IMG/VR virus record: IMGVR_UViG_2579779149_000006
Length of the DNA stretch: 24,488 nt
From: a virus
Lineage: Duplodnaviria > Heunggongvirae > Uroviricota > Caudoviricetes
Strand: one strand, 5' to 3'
The position numbers and the translations under genes were made by a program. Within the stretch, counting starts at the first letter, position 1. Each line of letters begins with the position of its first letter. The notes beneath the pieces were generated by a model. It worked only from the letters and a program-made list of their open reading frames with translations. It was not told the DNA's origin and did no database searches. Of the stretch, positions 1-18,314 are shown one piece after another.

Positions 1-636
1 TTATTTTCGTAAAAAAATCGACGCCCTATCCGGGTTTACTTTACATAGATGAGAAAGATATAGCGCCCTTCGATTAAATTTGCCTTCAGTAAGGTCATCA
101 ATGTTTTTCCTGAATGGGTACTTAATCCGTGCAGCTATGTCAAAGTCACTAATGCTTGCATGAGCTTTGGTAAGTTTAGCTATCCCATAAGTGCCATAGC
201 CAAAGTAGCAACAGGATATATATGCTATGCAGATATCATCTGCTGTTGTTGCTTTCCTGATAAGAATGGCTAATATTTGCTCTCTTATTTTTCTTCGAAC
301 TGTTTTCTCATATCTCTTAGTTATTGTTCTAACAAACTGTTGGTCTATAGTACTTGCGCCTTGATGAATGTTTTTAAATAATCTCAGATATATAGTTCTT
401 AAAATAGCAACTGGATCAACTCCCCTGTGTAATAGTTGCCGATGATCCTCAGCCACTCTTAATATATCAATTAAAGATAAAGATATAGATCTTTCACTTA
501 TCGAACTAAGCCTTATATAATCAATACATTTATAATAATCTTCCATAATACTTTTAACCCTGAATTTAAAAACCATTTCTGCCAATAGCAAGTATGGCAA
601 TGACAGTAAGGTAATCAAAAAGCGCTTCGCTGCCAT
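1..636 (-). CDS. GT51-family (monofunctional peptidoglycan glycosyltransferase-like) membrane-anchored protein, ~211 aa
   Basis: ORF 1..672 with stop TAA at 1-3. The track start at 672 is a TTG; first in-frame ATG is at 634-636 with AGGAG 3 nt upstream. N-terminal hydrophobic anchor RFLITLLSLPYLLLA. Motifs AEDHRQLLHRGVD, GASTIDQQ, RKIREQ and YFGYGTYG match GT51 motifs (EDxxFxxHxG, GxSTIxQQ, RKxxE, glycine-rich YFG). AT-rich, unlike the flanking P2 genes. Confidence 0.6.
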   Translation of the reverse strand: MAAKRFLITLLSLPYLLLAEMVFKFRVKSIMEDYYKCIDYIRLSSISERSISLSLIDILRVAEDHRQLLHRGVDPVAILRTIYLRLFKNIHQGASTIDQQFVRTITKRYEKTVRRKIREQILAILIRKATTADDICIAYISCCYFGYGTYGIAKLTKAHASISDFDIAARIKYPFRKNIDDLTEGKFNRRALYLSHLCKVNPDRASIFLRK

Positions 637-1163
637 TTCACGTCTCCTGATGTATCTGCAGCGGTGGACCAAAATTTGCCATGCATAGCATCTGCATTCA
701 CCTTTTGGAAATACAGCAAAATGGTATAACTCCTTAACTCACCTTCCATTTTTATATTCAATGAGGCATGATTTTTCCTTAAGTAATTTCTCTTAATCAC
801 CCCTCGAACCTCTCCAATACTTCTATGCTTACCAGTGTATGGTCTTATATTATTATTGTTTTCAACGTCTTTTGTTTTCTCAATAAACCCTTCAATATTA
901 TTGTTGTCACATATTAAAGTCAGTGTATAAAACGTTTTTAAATTCAAGTAAGGATTATACGCAGATTTTAGTGTTTTACATTCAACTTCAAAGACGCCCG
1001 AAAAATTTGGTGGCGGTTTAATATATTCTTTGAATATAAAAATCAATACAGCCGCAATAAGAGTAGCAACAGCACCACTTAAGATTTGATTTGTGGAAAT
1101 AAAGGTTAGAGATGGCTCAAGCCATTCCCAAAATATGTTGAAAAAATCAGTAAATTTATTCAT
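615..1163 (-). CDS. hypothetical single-pass membrane protein, 182 aa, no recognisable domain
   Basis: ATG at 1161-1163, stop TGA at 615-617. Predicted TM helix ILSGAVATLIAAVLIFIF near the N-terminus. The 3' end overlaps the downstream GT51-like gene by 22 nt (translational coupling). AT-rich, with a 280-bp AT-rich leader at 1164-1441. Confidence 0.5.
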   Translation of the reverse strand: MNKFTDFFNIFWEWLEPSLTFISTNQILSGAVATLIAAVLIFIFKEYIKPPPNFSGVFEVECKTLKSAYNPYLNLKTFYTLTLICDNNNIEGFIEKTKDVENNNNIRPYTGKHRSIGEVRGVIKRNYLRKNHASLNIKMEGELRSYTILLYFQKVNADAMHGKFWSTAADTSGDVKWQRSAF

Positions 1164-1664
1164 AAATTTCTTTTGATAGTATGTTTTTTATATGATGTTA
1201 CATTTTTGAGAAAAAAGCAACTTCGCCGATTAAAAACTATCTCGCTGGAATTTATGGGCATCATGTTATGAATACATTCTTATCCCATAGGGAATAAAAC
1301 CCTATCTATAGAATAAAAATCCAAATTTTATCTTAATAAATCAGATAAAAGATACTTATACTACAAAGGTACTTGTGTAAGATCAAACTTTTAATCCTAT
1401 AAGTTATAGATTGAAGCAACTGTGACTTATAGTGCGCACACTTAAGAATCTCCGATGACGATGGTAGCAGGAGACAACTTTTGACAACTCACTCCTATTA
1501 CCAACTTACTGACTTGCTCCGCGTTGAGAGATTTATAGTTATGCCAGCACTGTCCGCTTCTGGCACATTGCGGAAGGGCTAACGGCCCGGAGTAAGTGAG
1601 TAACGGATGTTTGCAAGCACTCTTACTGCTGACAATGATCGCATCCAAGATAAAATAGGTGGTG

Positions 1665-2180
1665 TCAAGGTACAGGTTCACCAATATAAGTGTGTGTGCA
1701 GCAACGACATGTCACCTTAACGTCATCTCTTGTGATTGAAAGGTTTACCTGTTGCAGAATTCCATTCTCATCAACAAACAGACCTGGGTAAAAACTGCTT
1801 TCACCAATGCAGACTAAATCCCTTCGCTGATGCTCATGTAGCGCGACCAACCAGAATACCGGCTCGGTGGTATCAAGACGTCCACATACTTCGCTGAATA
1901 TTTCATTCCACGGCTTGCCAATCTCTTTGATCAGAAAATAAAACAACGGTGTGTAGTCTCGGCCACGCTTCTGTCTGCTATGCATTGTCTCGCGCTTTAC
2001 CAGTAGCTCATCTCCGACTTTTTTGCGATTTCGTTCCCACCGATACTCAGCACCCGGATTATTAGAATGGTGCCGCGTCGTCGTGTTGACGCTGCGATAT
2101 AGTTTACGGGACTTATTCTGCTGATGAATACGCATAGCTCGATCTCGTACATCCTTTCTTTTGTGGGCCAGTAGCCCCAT
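1665..2180 (-). CDS. hypothetical protein, 171 aa (uncertain; possibly a decayed gene)
   Basis: ATG at 2178-2180 with AAGG 5 nt upstream. Basic N-terminus and a CxCC cluster at the C-terminus. The 1442-2356 interval is open in three overlapping minus-strand frames, so the coding assignment is ambiguous. Confidence 0.3.
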   Translation of the reverse strand: MGLLAHKRKDVRDRAMRIHQQNKSRKLYRSVNTTTRHHSNNPGAEYRWERNRKKVGDELLVKRETMHSRQKRGRDYTPLFYFLIKEIGKPWNEIFSEVCGRLDTTEPVFWLVALHEHQRRDLVCIGESSFYPGLFVDENGILQQVNLSITRDDVKVTCRCCTHTYIGEPVP

Positions 2181-2366
2181 TCAGACCTTGTGTTACTGTA
2201 TAAAAAATGAACACCCTTAAAGGCTGTATCATTCTGCTCAAATACCATCCTACTGACAACTACCAAAGGTCGGATTCTGGCACGGAGCGGACAATCAAGT
2301 AGAACTGAAGGCCCGCTATGTGCGAAAACAGACAGACACAGATTGATCACAAACATACCTGAACCA

Positions 2367-3296
2367 TCAGGATTTTATATCCTTGTGTGGCTCTAATCCT
2401 TCAGAAAGGACTTTATCAAATGCAGCATATTGCCTTTGTAATTTACTTTCACATTCATACAGACTCTTTAAACTAACATCATCCATAGATTGAAAGAGTC
2501 TTTTGTTATCAACTAAATAGGAGTATGCATTAAAAATAGAAACATCCATTATATCTTTCAGTTCTTCATCAGATAGTTTAGTCTTTTTACTTAAATGCTT
2601 AATCACATGTGACTGCAATGCATTTGCGCGAACCATGGCGGGAGGATATTTGCTATTCTTCCCTTCCAATTTACATAGAAAATTAAAGAAAAAAAATATT
2701 GATGTTAAAGATAAACTAACAAGTGTTTTCTCTTCTATTTTTTTCTCCGGGGCCTTTTTTATTGTATTTAAGACGACATCTGCAACAAAGTATGCTGAGA
2801 ATACATCTGCATCATACTCCATTAATGTTTTAATCTGATCTTCACTAAAATCTTCATCGACTACATTGTACCCCATTGAATAAACTTGGTAATCACCAAT
2901 CAGGTTTATTTCTTTACTTTTGGCTAATGATAAGTGTCCACGAGCGACATGTCCAAGTTCATGACCGAAAATATGGTGCCAAATAAAGACACACCCTAAC
3001 GCAACTGGAGCTTCCTTTTCTTTCAAGTCAGGGTATTCTCTCATGAAGAATTCTATATTTTCAGAAAGAATGTCAAACGTTATTGGTATCAACCCACTCA
3101 ATAAAATAATATGGAAATTATTGTCTTTTTTTTGTGCGTGAGCATTAAGGTTAAAATCGTCCTTAATGTGCAGAGCTATTTTTTTACCATCCTCTTCAAT
3201 AGCGGAGTTTATCTCTATCAATCCTTTTTTGAAGGTATCGTAAACAGGCAAGAAAAAACCACTTTCTATTTTCGAAATTTCATCACGGGTCATCAT
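2367..3296 (-). CDS. M78 (ImmA/IrrE-like, DUF955) zinc-metallopeptidase-domain protein, 309 aa
   Basis: Tandem ATG at 3291-3296 with AAGGTGG SD 5 nt upstream. HExxH motif in FGHELGHVARGH plus a downstream acidic/aromatic motif EYDADVFSAYFV, resembling the ImmA/IrrE third ligand region. Strongly AT-rich, with a poly-A/T tract inside the gene. Confidence 0.6.
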   Translation of the reverse strand: MMTRDEISKIESGFFLPVYDTFKKGLIEINSAIEEDGKKIALHIKDDFNLNAHAQKKDNNFHIILLSGLIPITFDILSENIEFFMREYPDLKEKEAPVALGCVFIWHHIFGHELGHVARGHLSLAKSKEINLIGDYQVYSMGYNVVDEDFSEDQIKTLMEYDADVFSAYFVADVVLNTIKKAPEKKIEEKTLVSLSLTSIFFFFNFLCKLEGKNSKYPPAMVRANALQSHVIKHLSKKTKLSDEELKDIMDVSIFNAYSYLVDNKRLFQSMDDVSLKSLYECESKLQRQYAAFDKVLSEGLEPHKDIKS

Positions 3297-3495
3297 ATTT
3301 CCACCTTTAACATGAAATCTAATTCTAATTGATAGGTCTACTTAGTTTCGCTCATTGTACTATTTTATTAAAGTGGGTTGAAGGTTACATTTTTATATAG
3401 CATGTCTACTGTCCCTTTGTGGCACAGAGCGGACTGTCAGATTAGTTTTTACTCTGTGCCATAGATGAGTAATCTCACACCAGATCTAATACGAT

Positions 3496-4074
3496 TTATT
3501 GTGGCATTTCAGGCCATTCTATATCCGGAGCATCTTCCGGCTGAACGCGATTCAGTAGCACACGGTATTTTTTCCAGTGTGTCAGACTTAACTTTTCTTC
3601 CTCGGTAGCCATATCTAAATCGACAGCATCCTGCAGCGTGGCAATAATTTCACCTGCATATGCAATCAGCTCTTTCTTCTGAGAGTCAGCCGCTCTGACA
3701 AGCGCATCACGCTCTGCATTCTCATCATTCACCCACGCATTTCCGTTCCATTTCTGATAATCCCCATCCGGGGAAATGGCTGTCACGTCTGGAGGTAATG
3801 CGCCAAGTTCAGAAATATAAATGGCTGCTCCTGTTTTTGTTTCATAGACAGTCTTTCCACGATGGTCTTCCACCAGATCCCATTTCATTTCATCTGCATT
3901 GAAAACGGCGGCAAAACCCACCGGAATATCTGGAGGTGCAATGTCTGTACTGTTTGCAGGAAGACCTGTATGCGGCGGAATATATGCGTCACTTTCGCCA
4001 ATAAATTCATTGGTTCCATCAAGTAAATTGAAAACGCGGATAGTTTGTGTCTCTGCACTCATTCTGAAAGTCAT
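3496..4074 (-). CDS. G: tail fibre assembly chaperone (P2 gpG-like), 192 aa
   Basis: ATG at 4072-4074 overlaps the H stop (TAATG). Lies immediately downstream of the tail fibre gene. Sequence has typical Tfa features (N-terminal MxxxMSAET... and WNGNAWV). Confidence 0.85.
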
Positions 4075-5849
4075 TATGCCAGCCTCACAATATAGTTATA
4101 CGCAACGTTTTTTACGGTGTTCTCTGAATTACCTGTGGCACTTACAGTGACGGTATGACTATGCGCGCCAATCGCAATGGAATGGCTGTGAGCACCAATG
4201 CCAACCGTGTGATTATGCTGACCAATGTCGACTGTATGGGCGTGTGCTCCCGCAGAGCTTGACACCTGGTTGGTTCCTGATACCTGTACGCGTTGTTTAC
4301 CCCCGATGGAGTCACCACCGTAACGACCACCGACAGTGTGTGTATGCGCTCCCGTATTGTTTGTCGTTTTTGTGCCGTGGTTAAACGTGCTGACCGTTTT
4401 TGTCCCGTAATCAAACGAACTGGTTGTTTTCGTCCCTAAATCCGTACTGGATGCACTGGCACTGTGGGTATGTGATTTAATTCCGTCCTGTTCCTGTGAT
4501 AATACGGCGCGACCACTGGCGGGTTTGCCCTTGATTGTCCAGCCGCGCATATCTGGAATCACCCCTGACGGATAAGCTACTGCAAGCAGGGGATAGGCTG
4601 CTTTATCAAAAGTCTGCCCCTGCATCAGGGCATAGCCTGTAGGTACTGAATCAGAAGGCCACGGGATTGGAGCACCTACCGGAAAGTTGTTGTACCCGTC
4701 ATGATGAATCAACTTCCAGCCTTTAAAAACACCTGCGCAAACTGCCGCAAAACCGATTACATCTCCATTAAAATCAATGCCAATAACAGTATTGTATCCC
4801 TGAGTATTGCTGTGTGCAGAGTTGATGTAGTGCTTCCAGGTGTGTCCTCCAGGCATTCCATTCTTTGCTGAGGAAGCATTAAAAAAGCCACCACGCGTAC
4901 GTAAATCAGTAGCAATATCACTTATATTTTCGGCGTACTCATTTAATCCCGCTCCTTTAGGTACTCGCTTGTTTGCATTGTCATTAGCAGCTTTCACTGC
5001 TTTCGGAGTCGCGGCAAGCGTTTCAGAATCGCTGTTGGTGGCACTACTTAGCTGGACAAGCCCTTTTCGTGCCGTGGTGGCGTCCTGTGCGGTGTATTTG
5101 CCATTAGCAAGGTCATATGCTGTCTTAACCGCCTTTGGCGTTGCTGCGAGCGTCTCAGATTCGCTGTTGGTGGCACTACTTAGCTGAACAAGACCTTTTC
5201 GCCCCGTGCTGGCGTCCTGAGCGGTATATTTTCCGTTAGCAAGGTCATACGCTGCCTTAACCGCCTTCGGCGTTGCGGCCAGCGTTTCAGATTCACTATT
5301 GGTCGCGCTGCTTAACTGAGTAAAACCTTTTGCAGTCAGTGAGGCGTCCGGATGGCGTCGTGACTGTTCGTGCTCTGCAATTTTGTCATCAACGTAATCC
5401 TGCGTCGCCATCACCGTTGTGGTGTCGATGGTCAGATCCACTGAGGCCACACTGCTGACGATAATGACCATGCGGCAGGTCTGCGAACGTCCTGAGCCTT
5501 CGGCAAGGGCAGGCTTATAACTTTCGGCCATGTTCGCCACGGCAATTAACGCACCGGTATCATCGTACAGACCAAGTTCACGCATCCAGAAACCGCCCAC
5601 CTCCGGCGGGATGACCAGCTCTGCGATAATATAATTACTGTGTCGATTGTCCTGACTGATTTTATTCAGGGCATGTCGCCAGACCTCATTAACAAGTTTT
5701 GTCTGTCCGGCATCCGGCACCGGCAATTGACCGCCACCGTCCCCGACGGCCATCGTGGTAATGTTGACCTTCCTGCCTCCCGGTGCAGTCGCCGCTGCCA
5801 GCTTTGCTGCACCGGCGGTAGTGATAACGGTTTGGAACTTTACGCTCAT
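4074..5849 (-). CDS. H: tail fibre protein (P2 gpH-like), 591 aa
   Basis: ATG at 5847-5849. Internal 44-aa repeats ([36 protein letters not shown]). C-terminal block GAPIPWPSD...[32 protein letters not shown] and repeated HxH motifs (GAHAHTV, GAHSHS), ending NYIVRLA, as in P2 H. Confidence 0.9.
4965..5330 (-). repeat. about 132-bp tandem repeat (about 2.75 copies) inside the tail fibre gene, encoding the 44-aa fibre repeat
   Basis: Protein repeats at residues about 174-217, 218-261 and 262-295 of H. Near-identical DNA blocks are visible around 5040, 5172 and 5304. Confidence 0.7.
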
Positions 5850-5859
5850 TATTCCTCAC

Positions 5860-6390
5860 TTATCCTGGGTAAACCGTAATAACATCGCCGTCATAAGCCA
5901 CACCACCGGCAAACAGATAACCGGGGATGTCCTGGGTAATATTCAGACCAATAAGGTGACGACTTGCAGGTTTGGCATCGGCAATCAGCCGTTCCATTTC
6001 CAGATACATCTCCTCCGTGATGCCGCTTTCCAGTACGCCGATATCAAGCCGGAAGGTGCCGGGCGGGTCGCTGTTTTCCCACCACTCCGTCACGTTGATG
6101 AGATAGCCGAGCGGCTCCACCACACGGCGAATCGCACCAATAGTGCCCTTATGGCAGTGAATGAAATACGCATCGCGGATAACGGCGCGTTTTGTCGCTT
6201 CCGGCCACTTTTCATCCCAGCGGTCAACCGAAAATGACCACGCCAGCCACGGCAGCAGATTTGCCGGACAGGTGTCCGGGTTCCACAGCTCACGAATACT
6301 GACCGGCGTTTTTTCAATTTCCGCACAGGCTTTTGCGGCGGCAACTTCAAGCGGTGATGAGCCTGTCGGCAGCAGTCGCGAATCATTCAT
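5860..6390 (-). CDS. I: baseplate/tail protein (P2 gpI-like), 176 aa
   Basis: ATG at 6388-6390, stop TAA at 5860-5862. Size and position (between J and H) match P2 I. Confidence 0.85.
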   Translation of the reverse strand: MNDSRLLPTGSSPLEVAAAKACAEIEKTPVSIRELWNPDTCPANLLPWLAWSFSVDRWDEKWPEATKRAVIRDAYFIHCHKGTIGAIRRVVEPLGYLINVTEWWENSDPPGTFRLDIGVLESGITEEMYLEMERLIADAKPASRHLIGLNITQDIPGYLFAGGVAYDGDVITVYPG

Positions 6391-7291
6391 CCGAGCCTCC
6401 GGTCACGACGCTGTATTCGGTACAGAAAGACGCCTGCGTACTGTTGAGCACGATGTCGGCCAGTGGTGCAGCCAGTTCGACACGCTGCACGCCTTCCACA
6501 TGCAAAGCGGCATAAATGGCAGACAGACGGATGTCGCGCCCCAGCCGGTGCTGTGCCGTGATATACGCTTCCAGTTCTTTCACGGCGGCCGCGCGAATGG
6601 GTTCTCTTTCAGGACCAGGGTAAAGGTAAAGCGTGGCGTTTATCTGGTATTCAACGATGGCAGCAGACTGCACGTTCACACGATCGGCCACCGGTCTGAC
6701 GTCCTCGCCATTAAGGGCGTTACGCACCACAGCCAGCAGGTCTTCGGATGCGACACCGTTATTTTCACGTGACAGCACAGAGATGGTGACACAGGCCGGA
6801 GACGGACTGGTGACAGAGATATCCGCGACACGCCCGTCGGCACTGCGACCATGATACTGATAGGCGCCCACCGACCCGGCGACGCTTAAACCTTCAAACG
6901 CCTGCTGAATACGCAGACGATAATCCGTGTCAGATTCCATCACTGCCGGTGTCGGCGGGATGGTCGAATCATCTGCCGGGGTGATAATCAGGCGCGCGGT
7001 GTTGTAATTGGCACCAATCACATCAAGGTCATTACCAGCGGCACAGGCCAGCATCACCGCCCGTGCGGCCTCATTCACACGCTGACGCCAGATAAGCTCA
7101 CGATAAGCATTTTCCTCCAGCAGTTTGACGAGAGGCTCGGATTCCAGCGTCAGGGTACGGGCAACCGCCTCCTGCTGGTCTTCCGGGTAAAGGGAAATCA
7201 GTGTCGCCTTGCGTTCGGCAAGAATGGTTTCAAAGTCCAGCTCCTCGACCACATCCGGTGCGGGTAGCTGGTTCAGGTCGATAATCGGCAT
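6383..7291 (-). CDS. J: baseplate assembly protein J (P2 gpJ-like), 302 aa
   Basis: ATG at 7289-7291. Overlaps the I start by 8 nt. Size and synteny match P2 J. Confidence 0.88.
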   Translation of the reverse strand: MPIIDLNQLPAPDVVEELDFETILAERKATLISLYPEDQQEAVARTLTLESEPLVKLLEENAYRELIWRQRVNEAARAVMLACAAGNDLDVIGANYNTARLIITPADDSTIPPTPAVMESDTDYRLRIQQAFEGLSVAGSVGAYQYHGRSADGRVADISVTSPSPACVTISVLSRENNGVASEDLLAVVRNALNGEDVRPVADRVNVQSAAIVEYQINATLYLYPGPEREPIRAAAVKELEAYITAQHRLGRDIRLSAIYAALHVEGVQRVELAAPLADIVLNSTQASFCTEYSVVTGGSDE

Positions 7292-7295
7292 GGTT

Positions 7296-7643
7296 TCAAC
7301 TCACAGGGATGGTTAACGAAAGTTGCTGGCCGGTGTCGTTGTGCTGGCCGTTTAACGTAACTGTCATTCGCCCGTCAAAACTGCGCTCAGTGGTGACGGA
7401 TGACAGGGTGACGCGGGGTTCCCATTTCAGCACCGCCATGTAACAGGCGACCTTAATCTGCAACTCAAGCGCCGGGGTCTGCGGCTGGTCAATCATTGAC
7501 GCCAGCAACGAGCCGTAATCACGACGCATCACCCGTGAGCCGACCGGTGTGCGCAGGATATCGCCGATACTCTGGCTGATATGCTCAAGGTCAGTGACAG
7601 TCAGGCCATCACTGCAATTCATTCCGAGATAACGCGCTGTCAT
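7296..7643 (-). CDS. W: baseplate protein W (gp25/GPW family), 115 aa
   Basis: ATG at 7641-7643 overlaps the V stop (ATGA). 115 aa, as P2 W. Confidence 0.85.
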   Translation of the reverse strand: MTARYLGMNCSDGLTVTDLEHISQSIGDILRTPVGSRVMRRDYGSLLASMIDQPQTPALELQIKVACYMAVLKWEPRVTLSSVTTERSFDGRMTVTLNGQHNDTGQQLSLTIPVS

Positions 7644-8275
7644 AGAGGACTCCCGGTTGTGCCGCCGCTGTCGCCGGGGTGTTTATGGGTATGCAGCACC
7701 TTACCGTTTGATGAGAGTTCACCACCGGTGTGTTCAATGTTGCCGCGCATCGTCCCACCCTTCTGCACTTCCAGCGTGCCGGTAGTCAGTTTGTTAGTGC
7801 AGACCACCTCCGGTGTGTCCAGGGTGACGCGGGTTGATGCTTTCACCATGACCACCGGCACCGTGGCAGTAACAGAATCAGAAGCCGTCACGCTGGCCGT
7901 TTTAATTCCGCTTACCGTGAGTGCACTGGTTTCGGGTTCATACTCAATCACCGCCCCGTCAGGGAAACGGATATGCAGGGCATCCGCCGACGCAGACGGC
8001 GCGGGGTTATCGCCGGAATAAATCCCCGGCAGAACGAACGCCGTGTCGAGTTCACCGCCCACAGCCAGAATCAGCACCTGTTCCCCCACGGAAGGTGCCC
8101 ACCATGTGCGCGAACGTCCGGCACGATGGGTCAGCCACTGAAGCCAGTCGGTGCACATGCCGCCGGTCTGCACACGGCAGCGACCGGCGTTAAGGTCGGT
8201 TTCGACGATAATGCCGGTGCGGATCATGTTGCGCAGTGCGCGCGCGAGTTCCTGAATATTTGCGAGAGTGTTCAT
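7640..8275 (-). CDS. V: baseplate spike protein V, 211 aa
   Basis: ATG at 8273-8275. 211 aa, as P2 V. C-terminal HxH region (HTHKHPGDSGGTTGSP) is typical of the spike tip. Confidence 0.85.
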   Translation of the reverse strand: MNTLANIQELARALRNMIRTGIIVETDLNAGRCRVQTGGMCTDWLQWLTHRAGRSRTWWAPSVGEQVLILAVGGELDTAFVLPGIYSGDNPAPSASADALHIRFPDGAVIEYEPETSALTVSGIKTASVTASDSVTATVPVVMVKASTRVTLDTPEVVCTNKLTTGTLEVQKGGTMRGNIEHTGGELSSNGKVLHTHKHPGDSGGTTGSPL

Positions 8276-8341
8276 AACGGGAAGGATGCCGCCGGGTCAT
8301 ACCGGCGGCAATGTGACGATGAGGTGTCAGGAATGGCACAA

Positions 8342-8794
8342 CTAACGGTCGAGGTGAGCCAGAATAATCTCTTCAATCATCTGCACATCCTCACCGGTAA
8401 AGCCGAGCAGAGGACGCGCCGGATAATCAATTTTCTTACCGTCTTTCCGGGTTTCTTCCGACAGACCGAACTGATGCACGCTGGCGATTTTCGGTGACTT
8501 CCCGCCGTAAAACTCCATTGATGCCTGTTCCGGGCTGGCGTGGATATGCAAAAAACGACTGGTGATAAGTTTCGCAAACATTTTTCGCTTAACACGACCA
8601 GTCTTTTTTCTGGCGCTCTGCTGCTGGCGTGGCGCGTAGGGTGTGCCGTCCGGGGCTTTCTGAGCCATCACCCGACGCTGCTGACTCTGCCGCAGACGCT
8701 TCGCCAGCTCTGCACTCAGCCGCCGACGCCCTGACGGTGACAGCGACTCAATAAGTCCGGTCAGCCGGTCTTCAAAACGCTTAAACTCATTCAT
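8342..8794 (-). CDS. S: tail completion protein S, 150 aa
   Basis: ATG at 8792-8794, stop TAG at 8342-8344. 150 aa, as P2 S. Overlaps the R stop. Confidence 0.8.
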   Translation of the reverse strand: MNEFKRFEDRLTGLIESLSPSGRRRLSAELAKRLRQSQQRRVMAQKAPDGTPYAPRQQQSARKKTGRVKRKMFAKLITSRFLHIHASPEQASMEFYGGKSPKIASVHQFGLSEETRKDGKKIDYPARPLLGFTGEDVQMIEEIILAHLDR

Positions 8795-9254
8795 CCCACT
8801 TGCTCACCAGTTCGCCATTGATATAAAGCTCCATCGGGCGGGTGACCGGCTCCGGCGGCGTGGGTTCCGGGATATTCTTCACATGCAGCGCGCCGTCCAC
8901 CTCACTGACCAGCGTGCGCTCGGTCAGCATCAGGCTGATGCTGATATCAAAGCTGCTGTCATTGTTGATGTCTGCATAAAACGTGAAGCCCTTTTTCTGG
9001 CCTTCGTCGGTGGTCATGATGTCGGGCTGATTTTCCCGCAGCCACGCCAGCACCGGCACGATGAGCAGGTCAAAATCACCGGTAAAGTCGGTCACAATGA
9101 CATTGAGCGTGTAACGCTTTTCGAATGACAACGACGCCGCCAGTGTGGAGGCAATACTCCCGTTATCCACGAATATCCGCAGCATATCGGGGTTAGTTTT
9201 CAGCACCGTGACGGCATCAGTCAGCGCCCTGCGCAGGCTGTCGGGTTTGAGCAT
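8787..9254 (-). CDS. R: tail completion protein R, 155 aa
   Basis: ATG at 9252-9254. 155 aa, as P2 R. Confidence 0.8.
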   Translation of the reverse strand: MLKPDSLRRALTDAVTVLKTNPDMLRIFVDNGSIASTLAASLSFEKRYTLNVIVTDFTGDFDLLIVPVLAWLRENQPDIMTTDEGQKKGFTFYADINNDSSFDISISLMLTERTLVSEVDGALHVKNIPEPTPPEPVTRPMELYINGELVSKWDE

Positions 9255-9507
9255 CGTTTTCGTCCTGACAGTGTTTAATCATTTTTACCTGGCTGGCACA
9301 ACGTGCCAGCGCGTTCTCGAGCTGCCGGATATCGGCACTTAAATCGCCGTTCGTCTCCGGGTCACTGCCCGGCATCGGGCAAAGGCTCACTTTCGGGCAG
9401 GCGTTGGCGACAATCACTGGCGTCGGTGCAGGCGGGGCGCTGGTGCAACCGGCGCACAGCATCAGGCAGGTCAGCACCGTACCAGCGGCGAAAATCTTCG
9501 TTTTCAT
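9217..9507 (-). CDS. lysC: o-spanin / Rz1-like outer-membrane lipoprotein (P2 LysC-like), about 96 aa, embedded out of frame in lysB
   Basis: Internal ATG at 9505-9507 inside ORF 9217..9624. Signal peptide plus lipobox MKTKIFAAGTVLTCLMLCAGC. Proline-rich mature part. Overlaps the 3' half of lysB in another frame and the R start. Confidence 0.6.
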   Translation of the reverse strand: MKTKIFAAGTVLTCLMLCAGCTSAPPAPTPVIVANACPKVSLCPMPGSDPETNGDLSADIRQLENALARCASQVKMIKHCQDENDAQTRQPAQGAD

Positions 9508-9787
9508 TAAGTAACCTCGTGATGGTTTTCTCGCGCTGTGCTTCACGCTTCGCGGCGTTCTCCAGTTCCTGACGCAGTGCCACCTGCGCCAACTCGTTTT
9601 TGTCTGCCCTGGTGAGGGCAGCATGAAGCTGATTTTTCAGCATGATGATGGTCGTCTGCTGTTCACTGGCGACGTTGTTCACCCTGTCCAGCGAGGCGCG
9701 CAGGCTGGCGTTTTCATGCTTCGCCAGAAACAGTCCCGCCACCGCCAGCGATAACAACACAACCAGCACAATCATCAGCTTTGACAT
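9362..9787 (-). CDS. lysB: i-spanin / Rz-like protein (P2 LysB-like), 141 aa
   Basis: ATG at 9785-9787. N-terminal TM anchor LMIVLVVLLSLAVAGLFLA followed by a charged coiled-coil-like region. 141 aa, as P2 LysB. Confidence 0.7.
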   Translation of the reverse strand: MSKLMIVLVVLLSLAVAGLFLAKHENASLRASLDRVNNVASEQQTTIIMLKNQLHAALTRADKNELAQVALRQELENAAKREAQREKTITRLLNENEDFRRWYGADLPDAVRRLHQRPACTDASDCRQRLPESEPLPDAGQ

Positions 9788-10200
9788 GGTTCCCGCCCCT
9801 CAAGACGCTGACGGCAGGCCGTGCGTATCAGCCGGAAAAACAGCGACGCCACGAGATAAATCAGCGCAGTAAAAATCCACCCGGTGGCAACCAGCGAGAT
9901 AAACGTCGCCACCATCACTACCAGAGCCGCCGCCCGTCTGCACCACGGCACCGGCTGCAAAAACAGCGACGTGACAATCTTCACGGCCAGCGATTCCGGT
10001 GGCAACTCCCGCCCGTAGCGTTCCAGCACATACTCCGTGGCATACACGCCAACACCACCGGCAACCACACAGATAACCGTCACCAGAATCGCCCAGGCAG
10101 CGACAAAATTGACGGCCACGCTCTGCGGGTAAATCAGGGACAGTGCCAGCATCAGCGCCAGCGACACATTCAGCATCAGTGAAAGGGATAATTTCTTCAT
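9775..10200 (-). CDS. lysA: lysis-timing membrane protein (P2 LysA-like), 141 aa
   Basis: ATG at 10198-10200. Multi-TM hydrophobic protein. 141 aa, as P2 LysA. Position between K and lysB. Confidence 0.65.
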   Translation of the reverse strand: MKKLSLSLMLNVSLALMLALSLIYPQSVAVNFVAAWAILVTVICVVAGGVGVYATEYVLERYGRELPPESLAVKIVTSLFLQPVPWCRRAAALVVMVATFISLVATGWIFTALIYLVASLFFRLIRTACRQRLEGREPCQS

Positions 10201-10214
10201 GGTGTTTACTCCGT

Positions 10215-10712
10215 TTAAGCCAGTACGCCGCCAGCGGTACGCCAGACGGTGACCAGTTTTTCCAGTGAATGCTCACGCTGACCGTAACCGGCACCCGGCA
10301 GGGACGCCCAGATATTTCGACAGCGTGAAATGGCGCGCTCAATACGTCCCGCCCGGATGTCATCCAGCGCACCGCGTTCGCGGATCAACTGAATGGCGAG
10401 TCTGTCCTGTGACAGCGGACTGAAATCCGGCAGGGCAAGCTGTTTGCGGTAATGCGGCCAGAACAGGTAAAGCTGCTGATAGCGACCGGAGGCCGTGGAT
10501 TTTTCACCGCGACGGTTAAACACCTTCGCCGGTCGGCCATGTGCGAACGGGTGGTCACTGTAGTCGGTGAAGATTTCCGGCTTCCCGTCCAGTCCGGTGA
10601 CTATCACGTCATAGCCACGGTTTTTCGTCAGCGGATGATTCGCCGTCCCTTCGGACACCGCCAGCATGTCGAGAAAGGCGGCGATATTCTGGTGCGTGTT
10701 AATTACCGGCAT
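10215..10712 (-). CDS. K: endolysin (P2 gpK-like lysozyme), 165 aa
   Basis: ATG at 10710-10712. 165 aa, as P2 K. Position follows the holin. Confidence 0.85.
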   Translation of the reverse strand: MPVINTHQNIAAFLDMLAVSEGTANHPLTKNRGYDVIVTGLDGKPEIFTDYSDHPFAHGRPAKVFNRRGEKSTASGRYQQLYLFWPHYRKQLALPDFSPLSQDRLAIQLIRERGALDDIRAGRIERAISRCRNIWASLPGAGYGQREHSLEKLVTVWRTAGGVLA

Positions 10713-10993
10713 TACGGTTTCCCCCTGCCCTTAAAGCGGCGCTGAATGGCAATCTCAATCACCTGATAACCGGCGATACCCAGCATGGAGCCGATGCCGC
10801 ACACCGCAGGCAGTGACAGGTCAGGAAACTGCACCAGAACAACACCGGCAACCATCGAGACAAAACCACCGAGCAACATGCGCCCGATAAACAGACGCGG
10901 GGTGATGGGTTCACCACCGGCAAGCACCTTGCCGACAACAATCAGCACCCCAATCATGAAAAGCGACAGGACGCTTTTTTCTTCTGCTGTCAT
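10712..10993 (-). CDS. Y: holin (P2 gpY-like), 93 aa
   Basis: ATG at 10991-10993. Small protein with TM segments and a charged C-terminus (RRFKGRGKP). 93 aa, as P2 Y. Confidence 0.8.
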   Translation of the reverse strand: MTAEEKSVLSLFMIGVLIVVGKVLAGGEPITPRLFIGRMLLGGFVSMVAGVVLVQFPDLSLPAVCGIGSMLGIAGYQVIEIAIQRRFKGRGKP

Positions 10994-10996
10994 GCG

Positions 10997-11200
10997 TTAC
11001 TCCCACAGATTGACAGTTTCAGCCACGGGCGCGGTCTGAACGTCGGGCAGTTCGACGGCGGTGCCGTGTGGCAGCACCGCACCCAGTTCAGCCAGTCCCG
11101 GATTTGCGGCGAGCACGGTCTCAACCACGCCCTCAGTGCGCCCGTAATACCGGACACAAATGGCGTCGAGCGTGTCGCCCTGTAGCGCAAAGGTCTTCAT
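10997..11200 (-). CDS. X: tail protein X (P2 gpX-like), 67 aa
   Basis: Internal ATG at 11198-11200 of ORF 10997..11269, overlapping the L stop by 1 nt. 67 aa, as P2 X. Confidence 0.75.
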   Translation of the reverse strand: MKTFALQGDTLDAICVRYYGRTEGVVETVLAANPGLAELGAVLPHGTAVELPDVQTAPVAETVNLWE

Positions 11201-11709
11201 CAGATTTGACTCACGATGCAGCGCGGCTTGTCCTGGATGCGCGCCACTGCCCAGCGCATATCCCGCCACAACTCATCAATGGTGCTGTCAATGCTGTCGG
11301 CCTTCTTGTCGCCTTTCGCACTGGCATCCACGCCGCGGTAACGCTCATAAAGCGACGCGGTCGCCATCGCACACACGGCGCGCTCGTAGTAAAATACTTT
11401 GATGCTTTCACCGTCGATGTCGTCCGCCGGGACGTCCGCCAGACGCGTAAAACCGGCGGCAATTTTCTGTTCGCGGTACTCGTACAGCTCCGCATTCGTC
11501 TCCGCCATACCTGACTTGATGGCCTCACGCAGACGGGCGGGGGCGACGGTCTGCTCAAGGCGCATACGTTCCCGGACGCGCTTCGGGTCGATATCGGGAA
11601 AAAAGAACGTGTTTTTAATCACCGGCTCGTCGCCTGCCGGTTGCGGGATGACCACCGTACCCTCACCGGATACAGGAGCCTCCTTTCGCGGAATAATCAG
11701 CGTCATCAT
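11200..11709 (-). CDS. L: head completion/stabilisation protein L, 169 aa
   Basis: In-frame ATG pair at 11704-11709 (MMTLIIPRK...); the first gives 169 aa, as P2 L. Stop TGA at 11200-11202. Confidence 0.85.
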   Translation of the reverse strand: MMTLIIPRKEAPVSGEGTVVIPQPAGDEPVIKNTFFFPDIDPKRVRERMRLEQTVAPARLREAIKSGMAETNAELYEYREQKIAAGFTRLADVPADDIDGESIKVFYYERAVCAMATASLYERYRGVDASAKGDKKADSIDSTIDELWRDMRWAVARIQDKPRCIVSQI

Positions 11710-11808
11710 GACTACCTCTGAAAAGTCGGGCGGTGGACGCCGGTGCAGTGTCAGATGATTCACCCTCACTGACCGGCGTGCCGCCCTGGCGCGGGGCGCA
11801 TTCGGTTG

Positions 11809-12552
11809 TTAACTGGCTTTCTTTTTCGGGCGTCCACGTTTTGCCGGGGTCACGCTCCGGGTCTTACGCGGGGTGCGGGTGACCGCTTTGGGCTGCGGCT
11901 CCGGCTTCGGTTTCAGCTCCCGCTCCAGTCGTTCAATCTCTTTTTTAACGCCTGCCTGACAGTCGAGCTGTGTCGCACGTTGCAGGTGCGCCAGCGCACC
12001 GGCGGCATCACCAGCGTCACGCAGAAACAGACCGGTGATTTTGTGCAGATTTGCGCGCACTTCATCAGGCATGTCAGCCGTGGCGGTCAGTTCAAGGGTG
12101 TCCGTCAGCAGGCGGGTATCCACGGATTCACCGGCAGCGTGGGCGCGCATGGCCGCGAGCGCGACCTCCTCGGTGAACATGTACGGCGGGGTGCGGCGGT
12201 GTTTACCCGGCATGGTCAGACCGTACTTCAGGGCATAACGGGCAATCTCCAGCGCACCGGCAATATCGCCGGTATCCAGACGCCACAGCATGACCGTCAT
12301 CAGAATGTCATCCTGTGCACCTTTGCCCTGCTCCAGCACGCCGTTCACCCACGGCAACCAGAACGGCAGCAGTTCGCGTTTTTTCGCGGCCTTCAGCTCT
12401 TTTGAATAAATCGCTTTCAGTGTGCGCTGGTCTGCGGCGAGCTTAACCAGCATCTGCTCATAGACAGTTGCATGTCGCAGCGGGGCGGCTTCCCGCTGCG
12501 CGGTCATCGCTGCCGAGACCCGCATCATGTGGCGCTGTGCGGGACTCGTCAT
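11809..12552 (-). CDS. M: terminase small (endonuclease) subunit M, 247 aa
   Basis: ATG at 12550-12552. 247 aa, as P2 M. Basic C-terminal tail (KRGRPKKKAS). Confidence 0.85.
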   Translation of the reverse strand: MTSPAQRHMMRVSAAMTAQREAAPLRHATVYEQMLVKLAADQRTLKAIYSKELKAAKKRELLPFWLPWVNGVLEQGKGAQDDILMTVMLWRLDTGDIAGALEIARYALKYGLTMPGKHRRTPPYMFTEEVALAAMRAHAAGESVDTRLLTDTLELTATADMPDEVRANLHKITGLFLRDAGDAAGALAHLQRATQLDCQAGVKKEIERLERELKPKPEPQPKAVTRTPRKTRSVTPAKRGRPKKKAS

Positions 12553-12555
12553 CGG

Positions 12556-13629
12556 TTACGCTCCCGGCTCTGCGGTCGCTTTAGCCGGTGTGGAGAAGTC
12601 ACCGACCTTGATTTTTTCCACCAGACAACCGGCGGCGTAGTCTTCCACCACGTAATCAATGTTCATTGACTCGTAGTTCTCCACGCGGTCGAGTTTCGGG
12701 TTTTCCTCAATCACGCGGCGATGGCTGTCATCCATGTAGTAGATGGACAGGTTTTCCAGCTTCGTGATGAGCATCGCATCCGCCGGGAAGTACGGGACGC
12801 GTACCGCTGGCAGGTTGCCGATGCGTTTCTGGCTGATGATGACGTCAGCGGCCAGCATTTCGCTGTTGTCCTGCTCCTTGTTGACGATGGGAAAATACTT
12901 GTCCGCCAGTAGCTGACGTCCCACAATCACCACAAGGTCAGGTTCTTCCTGATACCACGGCTCAATCAGGTTGTTGGTCGCATCCATCACCAGTGCATCA
13001 AGGCTGGCATAATCACCGCCCTTACCCACGCGGATGACCTCAGAGGTGGTGCGGCCTTCCTCGTCAGTGACCTTGCTCATCACGCGCGCCGGGGCTTCAT
13101 TGCGGTATTTCTGCAGCCAGCCGACCGCCACATCCTGCAGCATCGGATTACTGTTGCGGTCAGAGGTTTCGGCACGCTTCACGCCGTTAAAACCGGCCAT
13201 GATGAAATCAAGGGACTGGCGTTTGATAATGGCGTTACGGATACGGAGCTGGAAATCCTGATAACGCGCCCACAGGTCCAGCGTTTTGTAGCGGATATAA
13301 AAATCGAAGTTAACCTGGTCGCATTCGTACTTGTTTGACGCCAGCTTCGAGAAGTCCTTCGGCTGACGCTCGGTGCCACCGGCGGTGTCGGTGGTGCTGG
13401 CAATGGGGCCGGTGACACCGATACCAATTTTTTCCCCTTTCATTTCGCTGACCGGCACAATGTTGATGCGGGTCAGAAAGTCAGAGGACTCCTGCATGGT
13501 GTTCATCAGGGTCTGGGTGACCGACGGTTCAACGGTGAATTTTTTCGACACATCACCGGCGTCGATGCCGTTCAGTTCGGCAACACGGGACAGGTAGGCA
13601 TTAAATTTAAAACGGGTTTCCTGGCGCAT
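12556..13629 (-). CDS. N: major capsid protein N, 357 aa
   Basis: ATG at 13627-13629. 357 aa, as P2 N. Lies between scaffold and small terminase. Confidence 0.9.
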   Translation of the reverse strand: MRQETRFKFNAYLSRVAELNGIDAGDVSKKFTVEPSVTQTLMNTMQESSDFLTRINIVPVSEMKGEKIGIGVTGPIASTTDTAGGTERQPKDFSKLASNKYECDQVNFDFYIRYKTLDLWARYQDFQLRIRNAIIKRQSLDFIMAGFNGVKRAETSDRNSNPMLQDVAVGWLQKYRNEAPARVMSKVTDEEGRTTSEVIRVGKGGDYASLDALVMDATNNLIEPWYQEEPDLVVIVGRQLLADKYFPIVNKEQDNSEMLAADVIISQKRIGNLPAVRVPYFPADAMLITKLENLSIYYMDDSHRRVIEENPKLDRVENYESMNIDYVVEDYAAGCLVEKIKVGDFSTPAKATAEPGA

Positions 13630-13687
13630 ATTTGTTCCTGAAATTAAGGGTTAATCGTGAAGGTTTTCCCGGACTGACTGACGCCGG

Positions 13688-14542
13688 TCAGCAGTTCGTC
13701 ATCAGGGCGTCTCCGCCACCGCCGGTGGCCTTGCTGCGGCGCTGCTGGGTCAGACTTTCGGTGTTGTCGAGACTGTTTTTCAGGCGGGTGAATGCCTGGC
13801 TGGTTTCATCCGCCCTGTCAGTCACCTCCTGCTTAAGTGCGGAAAAGGCGTTTTCCATCTCAGCGAGGCGCTGCTCAGTGGCGCTCAGTTTTTCCTGCAC
13901 ATGTTCAGCAACAGCGGTCACCGCTTCATGCACGTCATTCAGACGGGCGTCATCGCTGGCCTGTTTGCGGCCAAAAATGGATTTCACCTTTTCGGTCAGG
14001 GCGGTGAACACGGTTTCAGGCAGGTCTTCAAATTCCAGCTCAACGGGCGTTGCCACTGAAATCAGGTTTTCAGGGCTTAATTTGAAGCGGTTCAGGGGGT
14101 TGTGTTTTGCCGTGCGGCAGAATTCCAGGTATTCCGTGCCGAGGCTTGCCGGGTCATCGGTGACGGCCAGACCCACCAGATAACATTTGCCGGTATTGGC
14201 AAAGTTCGGCTGAATTTCCATTGAGGTGTAGACCTTCTGCGCGGCCTTGTTCATCGCGATAAGGTCATCGGTCGGGGTGATTTTCGCAAACAGCGCCCAT
14301 TTGCCTTTCAGCGCCGAATCATCGTCAATCTTTTCGGCCTTCAGTTCGACCACATCGCCATAACGCTTAAAAATACCGTCAGGCAGGATGCCGCGCAGAT
14401 GTTCCAGGTTAATGCGGCAACCATAGACTCGCGGGTCAAAGGTTTCGGCCATTTCCTGAATATCCTGCGCACTGATGACACGCCCGTCACAGGTGTCACC
14501 CTCAACGCCGATACGAAAGAATTTTGAGACTTTTTTTGCCAT
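13688..14542 (-). CDS. O: capsid scaffolding protein O, 284 aa
   Basis: Start taken at internal ATG 14540-14542 (MAKKVSKFF...), giving 284 aa, as P2 O. The longer ORF to 14608 begins on a non-ATG codon. Stop TGA at 13688-13690. Confidence 0.85.
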   Translation of the reverse strand: MAKKVSKFFRIGVEGDTCDGRVISAQDIQEMAETFDPRVYGCRINLEHLRGILPDGIFKRYGDVVELKAEKIDDDSALKGKWALFAKITPTDDLIAMNKAAQKVYTSMEIQPNFANTGKCYLVGLAVTDDPASLGTEYLEFCRTAKHNPLNRFKLSPENLISVATPVELEFEDLPETVFTALTEKVKSIFGRKQASDDARLNDVHEAVTAVAEHVQEKLSATEQRLAEMENAFSALKQEVTDRADETSQAFTRLKNSLDNTESLTQQRRSKATGGGGDALMTNC

Positions 14543-14715
14543 TGTCAGGAGTCCTGAATAGTGATTAGAGGAGTCACATGTCGGCATCAGTTTCCCGACG
14601 ATGCGCATCCTCTGCCATCAGTCCCGGATGGCTTATCACTGACACAACAGCACCTTAGCGAATCGCGGGGCGCGACTCAGTAGCCTTGCCGTGTATTCAT
14701 CACGGCGAGGTATTC
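14543..14715. promoter_or_regulatory. divergent late-promoter region between O (leftward) and P (rightward)
   Basis: 173-bp intergenic region between two divergently transcribed late operons, as for P2 P_O/P_P. Contains small dyads (for example GCCGTG-N7-CACGGC near 14680) but no clean TGT-N12-ACA activator site could be placed. Confidence 0.4.
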
Positions 14716-16488: not shown

Positions 16489-17522
16489 TGAGCAAGAAAA
16501 AAGGGAAAACACCGCAACCTGCGGCAAAAACAATGACCGCCAGCGCCCCGAAAATGGAGGCATTCACCTTTGGCGAGCCGGTGCCGGTACTCGACCGCCG
16601 TGATATTCTGGATTACGTCGAGTGCATCAGTAACGGCAGATGGTATGAGCCGCCGGTCAGCTTTACCGGTCTGGCGAAAAGCCTGCGTGCTGCCGTGCAT
16701 CACAGCTCGCCGATTTACGTTAAACGCAATATTCTGGCTTCAACGTTTATTCCGCATCCGTGGCTTTCTCAGCAGGATTTCAGCCGCTTTGTGCTGGATT
16801 TTCTGGTGTTCGGCAATGCGTTTCTGGAAAAGCGTTACAGCACCACCGGCAAGGTCATCAGACTGGAAACCTCACCGGCAAAATATACCCGCCGTGGCGT
16901 GGAGGAGGATGTTTACTGGTGGGTGCCTTCCTTCAACGAGCCGACAGCCTTCGCACCTGGCTCCGTGTTTCATCTGCTGGAGCCGGATATTAATCAGGAG
17001 CTGTACGGCCTGCCGGAATATCTGAGCGCCCTTAATTCTGCCTGGCTGAATGAGTCAGCCACGCTGTTCCGCCGCAAGTATTACGAAAACGGCGCACATG
17101 CCGGATACATCATGTACGTCACCGATGCCGTGCAGGACCGCAACGATATCGAAATGCTTCGCGAAAACATGGTTAAGTCGAAAGGCCGCAATAACTTTAA
17201 AAATCTGTTTCTCTATGCACCACAGGGGAAAGCCGACGGCATTAAAATTATCCCGCTCAGTGAAGTGGCAACGAAGGACGATTTTTTTAATATCAAAAAA
17301 GCCAGTGCCGCTGACCTGCTGGACGCACACCGCATCCCCTTTCAGTTGATGGGTGGCAAGCCGGAGAACGTCGGGTCGCTGGGTGATATTGAGAAAGTGG
17401 CAAAGGTCTTTGTCCGCAATGAGCTTATCCCGTTACAGGACAGGATTCGGGAAATAAACGGCTGGCTTGGTCAGGAAGTCATCCGCTTTAAAAACTACTC
17501 ACTGGACACTGACAACGGCTGA
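16488..17522 (+). CDS. Q: portal (capsid vertex) protein Q, 344 aa
   Basis: ATG at 16488-16490. 344 aa, as P2 Q. Followed by a terminator and the cos region. Confidence 0.9.
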   Translation: MSKKKGKTPQPAAKTMTASAPKMEAFTFGEPVPVLDRRDILDYVECISNGRWYEPPVSFTGLAKSLRAAVHHSSPIYVKRNILASTFIPHPWLSQQDFSRFVLDFLVFGNAFLEKRYSTTGKVIRLETSPAKYTRRGVEEDVYWWVPSFNEPTAFAPGSVFHLLEPDINQELYGLPEYLSALNSAWLNESATLFRRKYYENGAHAGYIMYVTDAVQDRNDIEMLRENMVKSKGRNNFKNLFLYAPQGKADGIKIIPLSEVATKDDFFNIKKASAADLLDAHRIPFQLMGGKPENVGSLGDIEKVAKVFVRNELIPLQDRIREINGWLGQEVIRFKNYSLDTDNG

Positions 17523-17526
17523 ACAT

Positions 17527-17549
17527 CGCCGCCTGCGGGCGGCTTTTTT
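17527..17549 (+). terminator. rho-independent terminator after Q
   Basis: GC-rich hairpin GCCGCC-tgcg-GGCGGC followed by TTTTTT, immediately 3' of the Q stop. Confidence 0.6.
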
Positions 17550-17691
17550 ACACCCCGTCATCACGCACTCACACGCTCACCACCGCACAAAACACCCCGC
17601 AGACACACCAACGCCTCAACTGGCAGACTAAACGCCATCACGACGCGCTCAGACGCTGAAAAAATAAAATCAGCACCACCGCCAGCGCGCA

Positions 17692-17710
17692 GTGCTTTCC
17701 CCGCCTCGCC
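17692..17710. other. cos cohesive-end sequence (19-mer)
   Basis: GTGCTTTCCCCGCCTCGCC is the reverse complement of GGCGAGGCGGGGAAAGCAC, which I recall as the P2/186 19-nt cohesive end. It sits 170 bp past the portal gene, where P2 cos is expected. The match is from memory, not a database check. Confidence 0.55.
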
Positions 17711-17994
17711 CGCCCGCTTCACGTGGCGGTTTTAATGCAGTTGCATAGATACTATGGATCCGCACCAGTCCTGACCGCACGCAGCCTGAACGGACATCCC
17801 CAGCGCATGCAAAAACATTCACTTGTTGCATGCATAGCTTTTTAAGTACGCCATACCGCAACTGTACATTTTTAAGCAATTGGCAACTTTAAAAAATTTA
17901 CATTGCTTTCAAGACCTTATCATCCGTAGTCTCTGTTTTTTACTTTGAGCTACATCAATAAAATCTCAAACATGTTTAATGCAAAGCCCTTGTT

Positions 17995-18302: not shown

Positions 18303-18314
18303 TATGCTTCAAAC

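Follow-up and report, generated by a model that had tools for sequence, protein, structure and literature searches.

A P2-like prophage with a four-cassette accessory array, and a 24-nt repeat at every junction, in its G-FI (Z/fun) hotspot

Introduction

The gap between the tail fibre assembly gene G and the sheath gene FI of P2-like phages, the Z/fun position of P2, is a hotspot known to hold defence genes (PMC13586616; PMC9122126). P2 itself carries one gene there, fun(Z), in inverted orientation, and a review credits inverted repeats that flank fun and enable site-specific recombination to Nilsson et al. 2004 (PMC8987985). In the work of Moura de Sousa et al. 2026 on thousands of P2 and P4 elements, the mechanism of exchange is still to be elucidated and the repeats go unmentioned (PMC13586616).

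Here we describe this hotspot in a 24,488-nt stretch of viral DNA (IMG/VR record IMGVR_UViG_2579779149_000006; hereafter the window), a P2-like (Peduovirus) prophage that extends from inside the tail region through to the integrase gene int (23493–24488). Region 1–3495 covers three quarters, those nearer to G, of an array of four cassettes that fills 4.87 kb in the G-FI gap. The array shares with P2 its place between G and FI, the inverted repeats that flank fun(Z), and variable AT-rich cargo in common with bacterial chromosomes. It differs in holding four cassettes, parted by internal repeat junctions, where P2 has a single gene, in the co-orientation of all its genes with the tail operon, and in the cargo itself. 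Both the hotspot and the inverted repeats at its edges are known already, so the description of the site is not new in kind. The cassette genes are themselves new, and the array adds a new cargo set to a known hotspot; internal junctions, hybrid sites and arrays outside P2 may be new or may already have been reported.

Results and Discussion

A 24-nt repeat lies at every junction of the array

The guanine plus cytosine (GC) content of the window is 33.6% over positions 1–1551, 45.6% over 1576–2268 and 33.1% over 2333–3410, against 45.4% in gene G and 55.6% in the backbone at 3496–17500. A preliminary description, made from the letters alone, had proposed sharp compositional boundaries at a Z/fun cargo island, which these figures bear out; by rough arithmetic, the middle block lies ~12 GC points off its neighbours over 693 nt, or ~6–7 binomial standard deviations. 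The moderate-GC block that it had placed between 1442 and 2356 is real, but those limits are the ends of mechanically called open reading frames (ORFs), and homology gives 1546–2293 instead. The feature that explains the sharp boundaries had been overlooked: a conserved 24-nt imperfect palindrome is present at each compositional step, at 1552–1575 (GTCCGCTTCTGGCACATTGCGGAA, the boundary of cassettes 3 and 2), 2269–2292 (GTCGGATTCTGGCACGGAGCGGAC, the boundary of cassettes 2 and 1) and 3411–3434 (the terminal copy). The first two bound the middle block, one lying 6 nt from its left limit and the other ending next to its right limit at 2293. All three are of type A (GTCCGC-TyCTGGCACnnA-GCGGAC); a second form, type B (GTCTGC-TkTGAGCGAGnA-GCGGAC), is nearly the reverse complement of type A. 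The two clearest internal junctions are pairs in which an A copy is followed after 18 nt by a B copy (A-18-B; starts 42–43 nt apart), and the B partners within the window are decayed.

The window is nearly identical to the prophage of E. coli strain CE0011b (locus L001), which supplies the part of the array that lies to the left. As the preliminary description had observed, the window starts at the stop of a GT51-like gene (position 1 is the last base of the stop codon) and the far boundary falls outside it; in L001 the array continues with a 259-aa gene (L001 6648–7427), a junction repeat and FI. In order of transcription, the locus reads G (3496–4074), a conserved flank of ~62 nt, a repeat, the 309-aa gene of cassette 1 (2367–3296), a repeat pair, the 156-aa gene of cassette 2 (1665–2135), a repeat with a possible decayed partner, the 182-aa gene (615–1163) and the GT51 gene (1–636) of cassette 3, a repeat pair, the 259-aa gene of the fourth cassette, a repeat, a flank, a terminator and FI. 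The cargo had also been claimed to be co-oriented with the tail genes, and every plausible gene in it does lie on the minus strand, as do G and the tail fibre gene H (4074–5849). At the boundary of cassettes 2 and 1, the partner 18 nt from the A copy is a degenerate type B element at 2311–2334 (GCCCGCTATGTGCGAAAACAGACA), which falls below the threshold of the scan described below and resembles the B copy at L001 7666 (GTCTGCTGTGAGCGAAAACCGGAC). That B copy and an A copy at L001 7624 form the pair that separates the GT51 gene from the 259-aa gene, and a type B copy at L001 6568–6591 stands beside FI. At the boundary of cassettes 3 and 2, position and partial similarity hint weakly at a degenerate type B remnant at 1594–1617, also 18 nt from the A copy, which fails the 4-mismatch scan.

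We scanned 80 P2-like contigs from IMG/VR, fetched through the FI protein (1.16 Mb), with both patterns, allowing at most 4 mismatches in the 20 specified positions; shuffled controls returned 0 hits. All classifiable copies (82 of 82) were in the G-FI gap, which amounts to 104 kb, and 0 were found in the other 887 kb. The A copy lies 50–68 nt (mostly 62) past the G stop and the B copy at about −216 from the FI ATG. The gap ranges from 129 to 4,405 bp in the 80 loci, multi-cassette loci having B/A pairs, 42 nt apart, between their cassettes and single-cassette hotspots occurring too. Eight loci are empty sites of 129–136 bp without the repeat, in which the G stop is followed directly by an intrinsic terminator (CAGGCGGGCtgatTGCCCGCCTTTTCTTT) and the FI promoter region. 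In occupied sites, the terminator remains on the FI side, so that the cargo and its conserved flanks of ~62 nt and ~85 nt occupy the interval from the G stop to the terminator. The G-side flank of the window (3435–3495) is kept in occupied P2-like loci that have the G-side repeat and is missing from empty sites.

Copies of the same elements stand on either side of fun(Z) in P2 (A at 836–859 and B at 2933–2956 of locus L222), which makes it very likely that the A and B elements are the repeats of Nilsson et al. 2004; a full-text search with the repeat 15-mers found no paper. The same repeats part cassettes in loci without P2 genes from Phytobacter, Klebsiella, Pantoea, Leclercia and Citrobacter. 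No Rfam family matches them.

End sites are hybrids of backbone and cargo

Among P2-like loci with distinct cargo (29 on the G side and 27 on the FI side), conservation ends exactly at the cargo-side end of the 24-mer. The backbone-side 14–15 nt are near-invariant (GTCCGCTCTGTGCCA at G and CGCTCAAAGCAGAC at FI), the cargo side consists of a variable triplet followed by a looser stem arm, and ~29–37 distinct cargo flanks were seen. Where two loci have a backbone flank in common but differ in cargo, the outer halves were identical in 34% of pairs (G side) and 65% (FI side), and the inner halves in 6% and 5%, respectively.

The terminal repeat of the window (3411–3434) is such a hybrid, in which 3411–3419 (GTCCCTTTG) is the cargo half and 3420–3434 (TGGCACAGAGCGGAC) the P2 backbone half. 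Zero of 50,697 phage genome records match window 1–3421; identity with phage P24A7b begins at 3422, and from about 3422 rightwards the window is 96–97% identical to many Peduovirus genomes. Identity with a non-P2 island of strain NB4833 (locus L002) stops at 3434. L001 and L002 have 4,867 bp in common at 99.9% identity, internal junctions included, and the two ends of this block (L001 6568–11434) fall within a B copy and an A copy, respectively. Both loci have the same inner halves, GTCCCTTTG and AGGAGCGGAC, whereas the outer halves go with the context. This is the sole clean pair with the same cargo; same-cargo pairs on different backbones within the IMG/VR sample numbered n = 1 and 5, too few to assess co-segregation. 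The array is a clean worked example, with a repeat at every junction and end-site halves that follow backbone and cargo separately, and the swapping mechanism becomes testable by site deletion, by enzyme search and by mapping of breakpoints across pangenomes.

The backbone half of the terminal repeat is also part of the strongest structure seen, a 10-bp hairpin in which 3420–3429 pairs with 3452–3461 (−9.9 kcal/mol, z = −4.0). This backbone hairpin overlaps the outer half of the repeat and could account for the conservation of that half.

The array occurs in two contexts

Horizontally acquired cargo at the Z/fun position, as first proposed, is supported by the distribution of the array. Besides the phage genome records, which hold no match, none of the 80 P2-like contigs encodes any of the five cargo proteins, and the block is held by 2 of 5,426 complete E. 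coli genomes. Alignment gave no sign that these are core P2 genes, and the description of them as cargo holds.

In NB4833, the array lies in an island with an integrase, insertion sequence (IS) elements, and helix-turn-helix (HTH) and ATPase genes. An identity of 99.9% in two contexts implies that the array was assembled before at least one of them received it and that it travelled as a unit, in a direction that cannot be told from these data. At least two independent acquisitions at the same phage locus had been proposed from the GC mosaic. The mosaic stands, the middle block having its own history, but acquisitions at this phage locus do not follow, given that the whole array is found in the NB4833 island. 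The middle cassette alone has matches in 211 further E. coli genomes, mostly at 90–99% identity (95.9% among the matches listed), and in the one such locus that we fetched, an integrase island beside ychF, it has different neighbours and is bounded by A copies.

The cassettes may nevertheless have been inserted one after another into this prophage lineage, with the GC mosaic recording successive acquisitions in situ. The separate composition of the middle cassette (45.6% against 33%) and its spread over the 211 genomes agree with such a history, as do the internal junction repeats, which mark where single cassettes could have entered, and the presence of both multi-cassette and single-cassette hotspots among P2-like contigs. 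We nonetheless regard it as rather unlikely: one block transfer of the whole 4,867 bp suffices for one of the two contexts, assembly may have occurred elsewhere, and no P2-like contig in the sample has a subset of these cassettes.

The NB4833 island has further repeated structure. Two copies of an HTH gene with a divergent 186-aa gene (L002 4838–5828 and 16529–17519) flank the array together with a segment that encodes a DUF2254 protein and a BCCT transporter, and two large unannotated genes (787 and 147 aa) adjoin an integrase.

Recombination within the repeats as the probable route of exchange

Our preferred account, which we consider probable, is that the locus is a four-cassette accessory array in the G-FI hotspot, that its cassettes are exchanged by recombination within the 24-nt repeats, and that its cargo is likely to serve lysogenic conversion. 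Crossovers would fall inside the repeats; the backbone-side 14–15 nt would stay with the phage and the cargo-side 9–10 nt of the repeat would move with the cassette. The repeats would then be the cause of exchange, and a recombinase would act on them.

Several observations weigh against this account. No recombinase could be tied to the repeats, which occur with different integrases (P2 Int and those in L002 and L003), and the P2 hotspot has no integrase nearby. Exchange among P2-like phages could also use the long stretches of homology in G and FI, with no need of a special site. The window copies are weak hairpins (−4.3, −0.6 and −3.2 kcal/mol) and the A-18-B composites fold like shuffles (z ~ −0.3), so that a mechanism needing folded single strands is not supported; for the same reason, we rejected a long REPIN-like hairpin formed by the composite. 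The cargo proteins have no match in PADLOC, NCBIfam (GT51 aside) or annotated PHROG, and the 156-aa family is also found among ordinary chromosomal genes in Serratia.

Integron arrays likewise consist of small, mostly single-gene, co-oriented cassettes, each ending in an imperfect palindrome, with crossovers at a fixed point inside the site and cassettes common to unrelated replicons, as here. The attC sites of integrons have R''/R' cores of the form RYYYAAC/GTTRRRY. The array differs in having no IntI or attI, in its 24-nt sites with GTCCGC/GCGGAC arms that form inverted A/B pairs, and in the long AT-rich leaders of its cassettes, which would probably supply their own promoters. An integron was rejected, there being no attC cores in the GTCCGC-N12-GCGGAC sites and no IntI; the window encodes no recombinase other than P2 Int, 20 kb off, and none is annotated beside the array in L001. 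The leader of cassette 3 (1164–1551, minus strand; GC 27–32%, without ORF) is presumed to be a promoter region, although promoter-like sites in it are no commoner than in shuffles.

Repetitive extragenic palindromic (REP) sequences, with their BIME and REPIN composites and associated RAYT transposases (PMC2817692), share with our repeats the short imperfect palindromes, alternating orientation, a short spacer and a position downstream of genes. The 24-nt repeats may be REP-like selfish or regulatory palindromes (acting at transcript ends, in RNA stability or in protein binding), at which crossovers occur as the sole shared short homology. Each window copy lies 57–113 nt downstream of a stop codon, consensus A folds into a stable hairpin (−8.1 kcal/mol, z = −3.6), and a look-alike family is high-copy in some Alphaproteobacteria, where it also follows stop codons and is paired with a second palindrome ~20 nt off. 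The repeats here, however, are limited to one locus in P2-like genomes, with 0 copies in the 887 kb outside the hotspot, unlike dispersed REPs; the window copies fold poorly, the composites fold no better than shuffles, and Rfam holds no family for them. RAYT-associated REPs carry a conserved 5′ GTAG. No GTAG precedes the sites, and none of the loci examined showed a RAYT gene, although no systematic RAYT search was made. We find REP-like palindromes a doubtful explanation, and one that overlaps with recombination at the repeats, which would still be the exchange points.

The alphaproteobacterial family was found with the strict 24-mer pattern GTCYGCTNNTGGCACNNAGCGGAC, which hit at least 120 loci among species-representative genomes vs. 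~2 expected by chance, an estimate from the specified bases. Most of these loci belong to Xanthobacteraceae or Hyphomicrobiales assemblies, in many of which the pattern recurs between genes at high copy number. Its copies usually lie 10–20 nt past a stop codon, often of a gene ending ...GAGGTGATCGAATAA, and the second palindrome, GTCCGCTTTCGGGGGTAAAGCGGAC, lies ~20 nt beyond the copy, as at L136 1625–1648 and in L137 (3 copies). A BLAST search with an 81-nt composite lacked the sensitivity needed to count copies in E. coli chromosomes.

Three other candidate features of the repeats were set aside. A terminal inverted repeat extending beyond ~33 nt was not significant (alignment score 35 vs. 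a shuffle maximum of 36). The resemblance of 1561–1574 to a sigma-54 promoter (TGGCAC...TTGC) fails on spacing, its GG and GC elements being ~5 nt apart against the 10 of the consensus. Repeats accompanying the GT51 module in other genera were sought in loci L085–L089, and none was found there.

A more far-reaching proposal is that the A and B repeats are the sites of a cassette-exchange system with a trans-acting recombinase, integron-like with other sites and another enzyme, by which accessory or defence cassettes, singly or as whole arrays, would pass between the tail-gene hotspot of P2-like phages and unrelated chromosomal islands across Enterobacterales; that they are kin to the alphaproteobacterial REP-like family; and that the beta-barrel and GT51 proteins of cassette 3 are a new cell-wall anti-phage module. 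Taken together, we judge this improbable.

A GT51 protein paired with a beta-barrel protein

The cargo adds candidate genes, foremost the pair in cassette 3, whose linkage is backed by gene fusions in distant relatives. The second gene of the cassette (1–636, minus strand; RefSeq WP_029397131.1, with the mechanical ORF reaching 672) encodes a 211-aa protein with a membrane-anchored GT51 domain (Pfam PF00912, E = 1.8e-22, 80 bits vs. a cut-off of 27). Across 11 homologues, with identities as low as 36%, there is no variation in its catalytic motifs (E63-D64...H70xG72, G93xSTIxQQ and R115-K116..E119), and it aligns to the structures of PBP1a and MtgA. We predict it to be a GT51 peptidoglycan glycosyltransferase that polymerises lipid II. 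With MtgA (PDB 3hzs, 3vmq) and the GT51 domain of class A penicillin-binding proteins it shares PF00912, the catalytic motifs, an N-terminal membrane anchor and a similar size. Its clade differs from MtgA in being short, divergent and confined to mobile contexts in Enterobacterales (31 clusters), in a score of 37 bits against an NCBIfam MtgA cut-off of 183, and in being always paired or fused with a two-helix beta-barrel protein.

That partner is the 182-aa protein of the first gene (615–1163, minus strand), which overlaps the GT51 gene by 22 nt; the two genes are kept together in relatives of 63% and 41% identity. The structural model of the 182-aa protein (predicted local distance difference test score, pLDDT, 94.6) has two N-terminal hydrophobic helices and an 8-stranded beta-barrel. 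Its family comprises 251 representatives, of which 4 are fused to a Transgly domain and 1 to an N-acetylmuramoyl-L-alanine amidase. These fusions are strong evidence that the pair acts jointly on peptidoglycan. As a working model, the GT51 domain would face the periplasm and act with its membrane beta-barrel partner, and the pair would alter the cell wall against an incoming phage or serve as a suicide effector.

In its modelled fold, the 182-aa protein appears to share two N-terminal helices and an 8-stranded barrel with Cap15 and the 2TM-beta effectors (PDB 7n34; PMC12657218 and PMC12657230). It has no sequence or profile similarity to Cap15 in Pfam, PADLOC or PDB profiles, and avidins and designed barrels match the fold equally well or better. 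Cap15 acts in CBASS and Panoptes; here no nucleotide cyclase is nearby, and the partner is a cell-wall enzyme. A tie of the 182-aa family to Cap15 or to Pfam at the level of sequence was sought and none was found.

Both the GT51 pair and the 156-aa gene also have relatives in arrays of miscellaneous small genes in Serratia (L088) and Salmonella (L094–L097), among genes for DUF6404, GNAT acetyltransferases, DUF2946, DUF1543 and Smr; the Serratia array adjoins a P4-type primase.

Other cargo proteins and the role of the cargo

The 309-aa protein of cassette 1 (2367–3296, minus strand) belongs to a very rare family, with 15 clusters in Klebsiella, Dickeya, Salmonella and Vibrio. Its HExxH, RGH and ExDAD motifs are invariant, H112 and E113 being among the invariant catalytic residues, and its model (pLDDT 81.6) resembles M13 and M48 zincins, with HExxH and a downstream acidic third ligand apparently placed in a zincin fold. 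We predict a zincin-like zinc metallopeptidase, outside the curated peptidase families (Pfam M48, 13.2 bits, below the cut-off of 20.3; no NCBIfam match). The 156-aa protein of cassette 2 (1665–2135, minus strand; 46% GC; RefSeq WP_029397133.1, with the mechanical ORF reaching 2180) represents a family of 91 clusters across Enterobacterales with conserved motifs DYTPLFxFL and CxCCTHT and no Pfam match, and its gene stands alone in varied contexts. The 259-aa protein of the fourth cassette, which begins MTREHILPSF, has no match in Pfam, NCBIfam, PHROG or PDB; by eye, its CFHCNN motif resembles that of HNH proteins.

By analogy with P2 fun(Z), and going by location, the cargo would most likely be lysogenic-conversion genes that protect against other phages. 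A role apart from phage defence, whether in envelope remodelling or other lysogenic conversion, in accessory lysis by read-through from the late operon, or as decaying passengers, agrees with the absence of any match of the five proteins to the 5,027 PADLOC models, with the cell-wall metabolism suggested by the GT51 domain and the amidase fusion, and with the occurrence of the 156-aa family among housekeeping-type genes; the cargo is moreover co-oriented with the late operon and upstream of its original terminator, which makes late read-through plausible. We give such a role limited credence, however. The founding member of the hotspot, fun(Z), is annotated in AF063097 as blocking T5, and a share of the defence systems of P2 has been placed among the tail genes in published work (PMC13586616). 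The ORFs are moreover intact with invariant catalytic residues, and the islands in which the same cassettes occur contain AAA ATPase, helicase and HTH genes of the sort common in defence islands.

Other features of the window

Gene G (3496–4074, minus strand), the conserved right anchor of the array, matches Pfam Caudo_TAP (E = 3.4e-40), and RefSeq annotation concurs. In CE0011b, an IS2 element (L001 11550–12879) lies in the 3′ end of G, at a point corresponding to window ~3544–3549, and annotated G is cut to 181 aa; the window is without IS2 and has an intact 192-aa G. Within the 3′ part of G, 3533–3700 (minus strand) partially matches Rfam IS009 (RF02111; 40 bits vs. a gathering threshold of 117, E = 4e-7), which is probably due to tail-fibre-assembly sequence from prophages among the seed members of the family and not to an RNA gene.

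A second hotspot, the old/tin position between the replication gene A and the portal gene Q, spans 17523–18604 (~1.08 kb). It has a GC content of 35–44% over 17800–18600, no ORF longer than 88 aa and no 24-nt junction repeats, and similar unannotated DNA is found in some P2-like phages at 86–88% identity. Gene H contains tandem 132-bp units at 4971–5331 (three 44-aa copies), with ~82% identity between neighbours.

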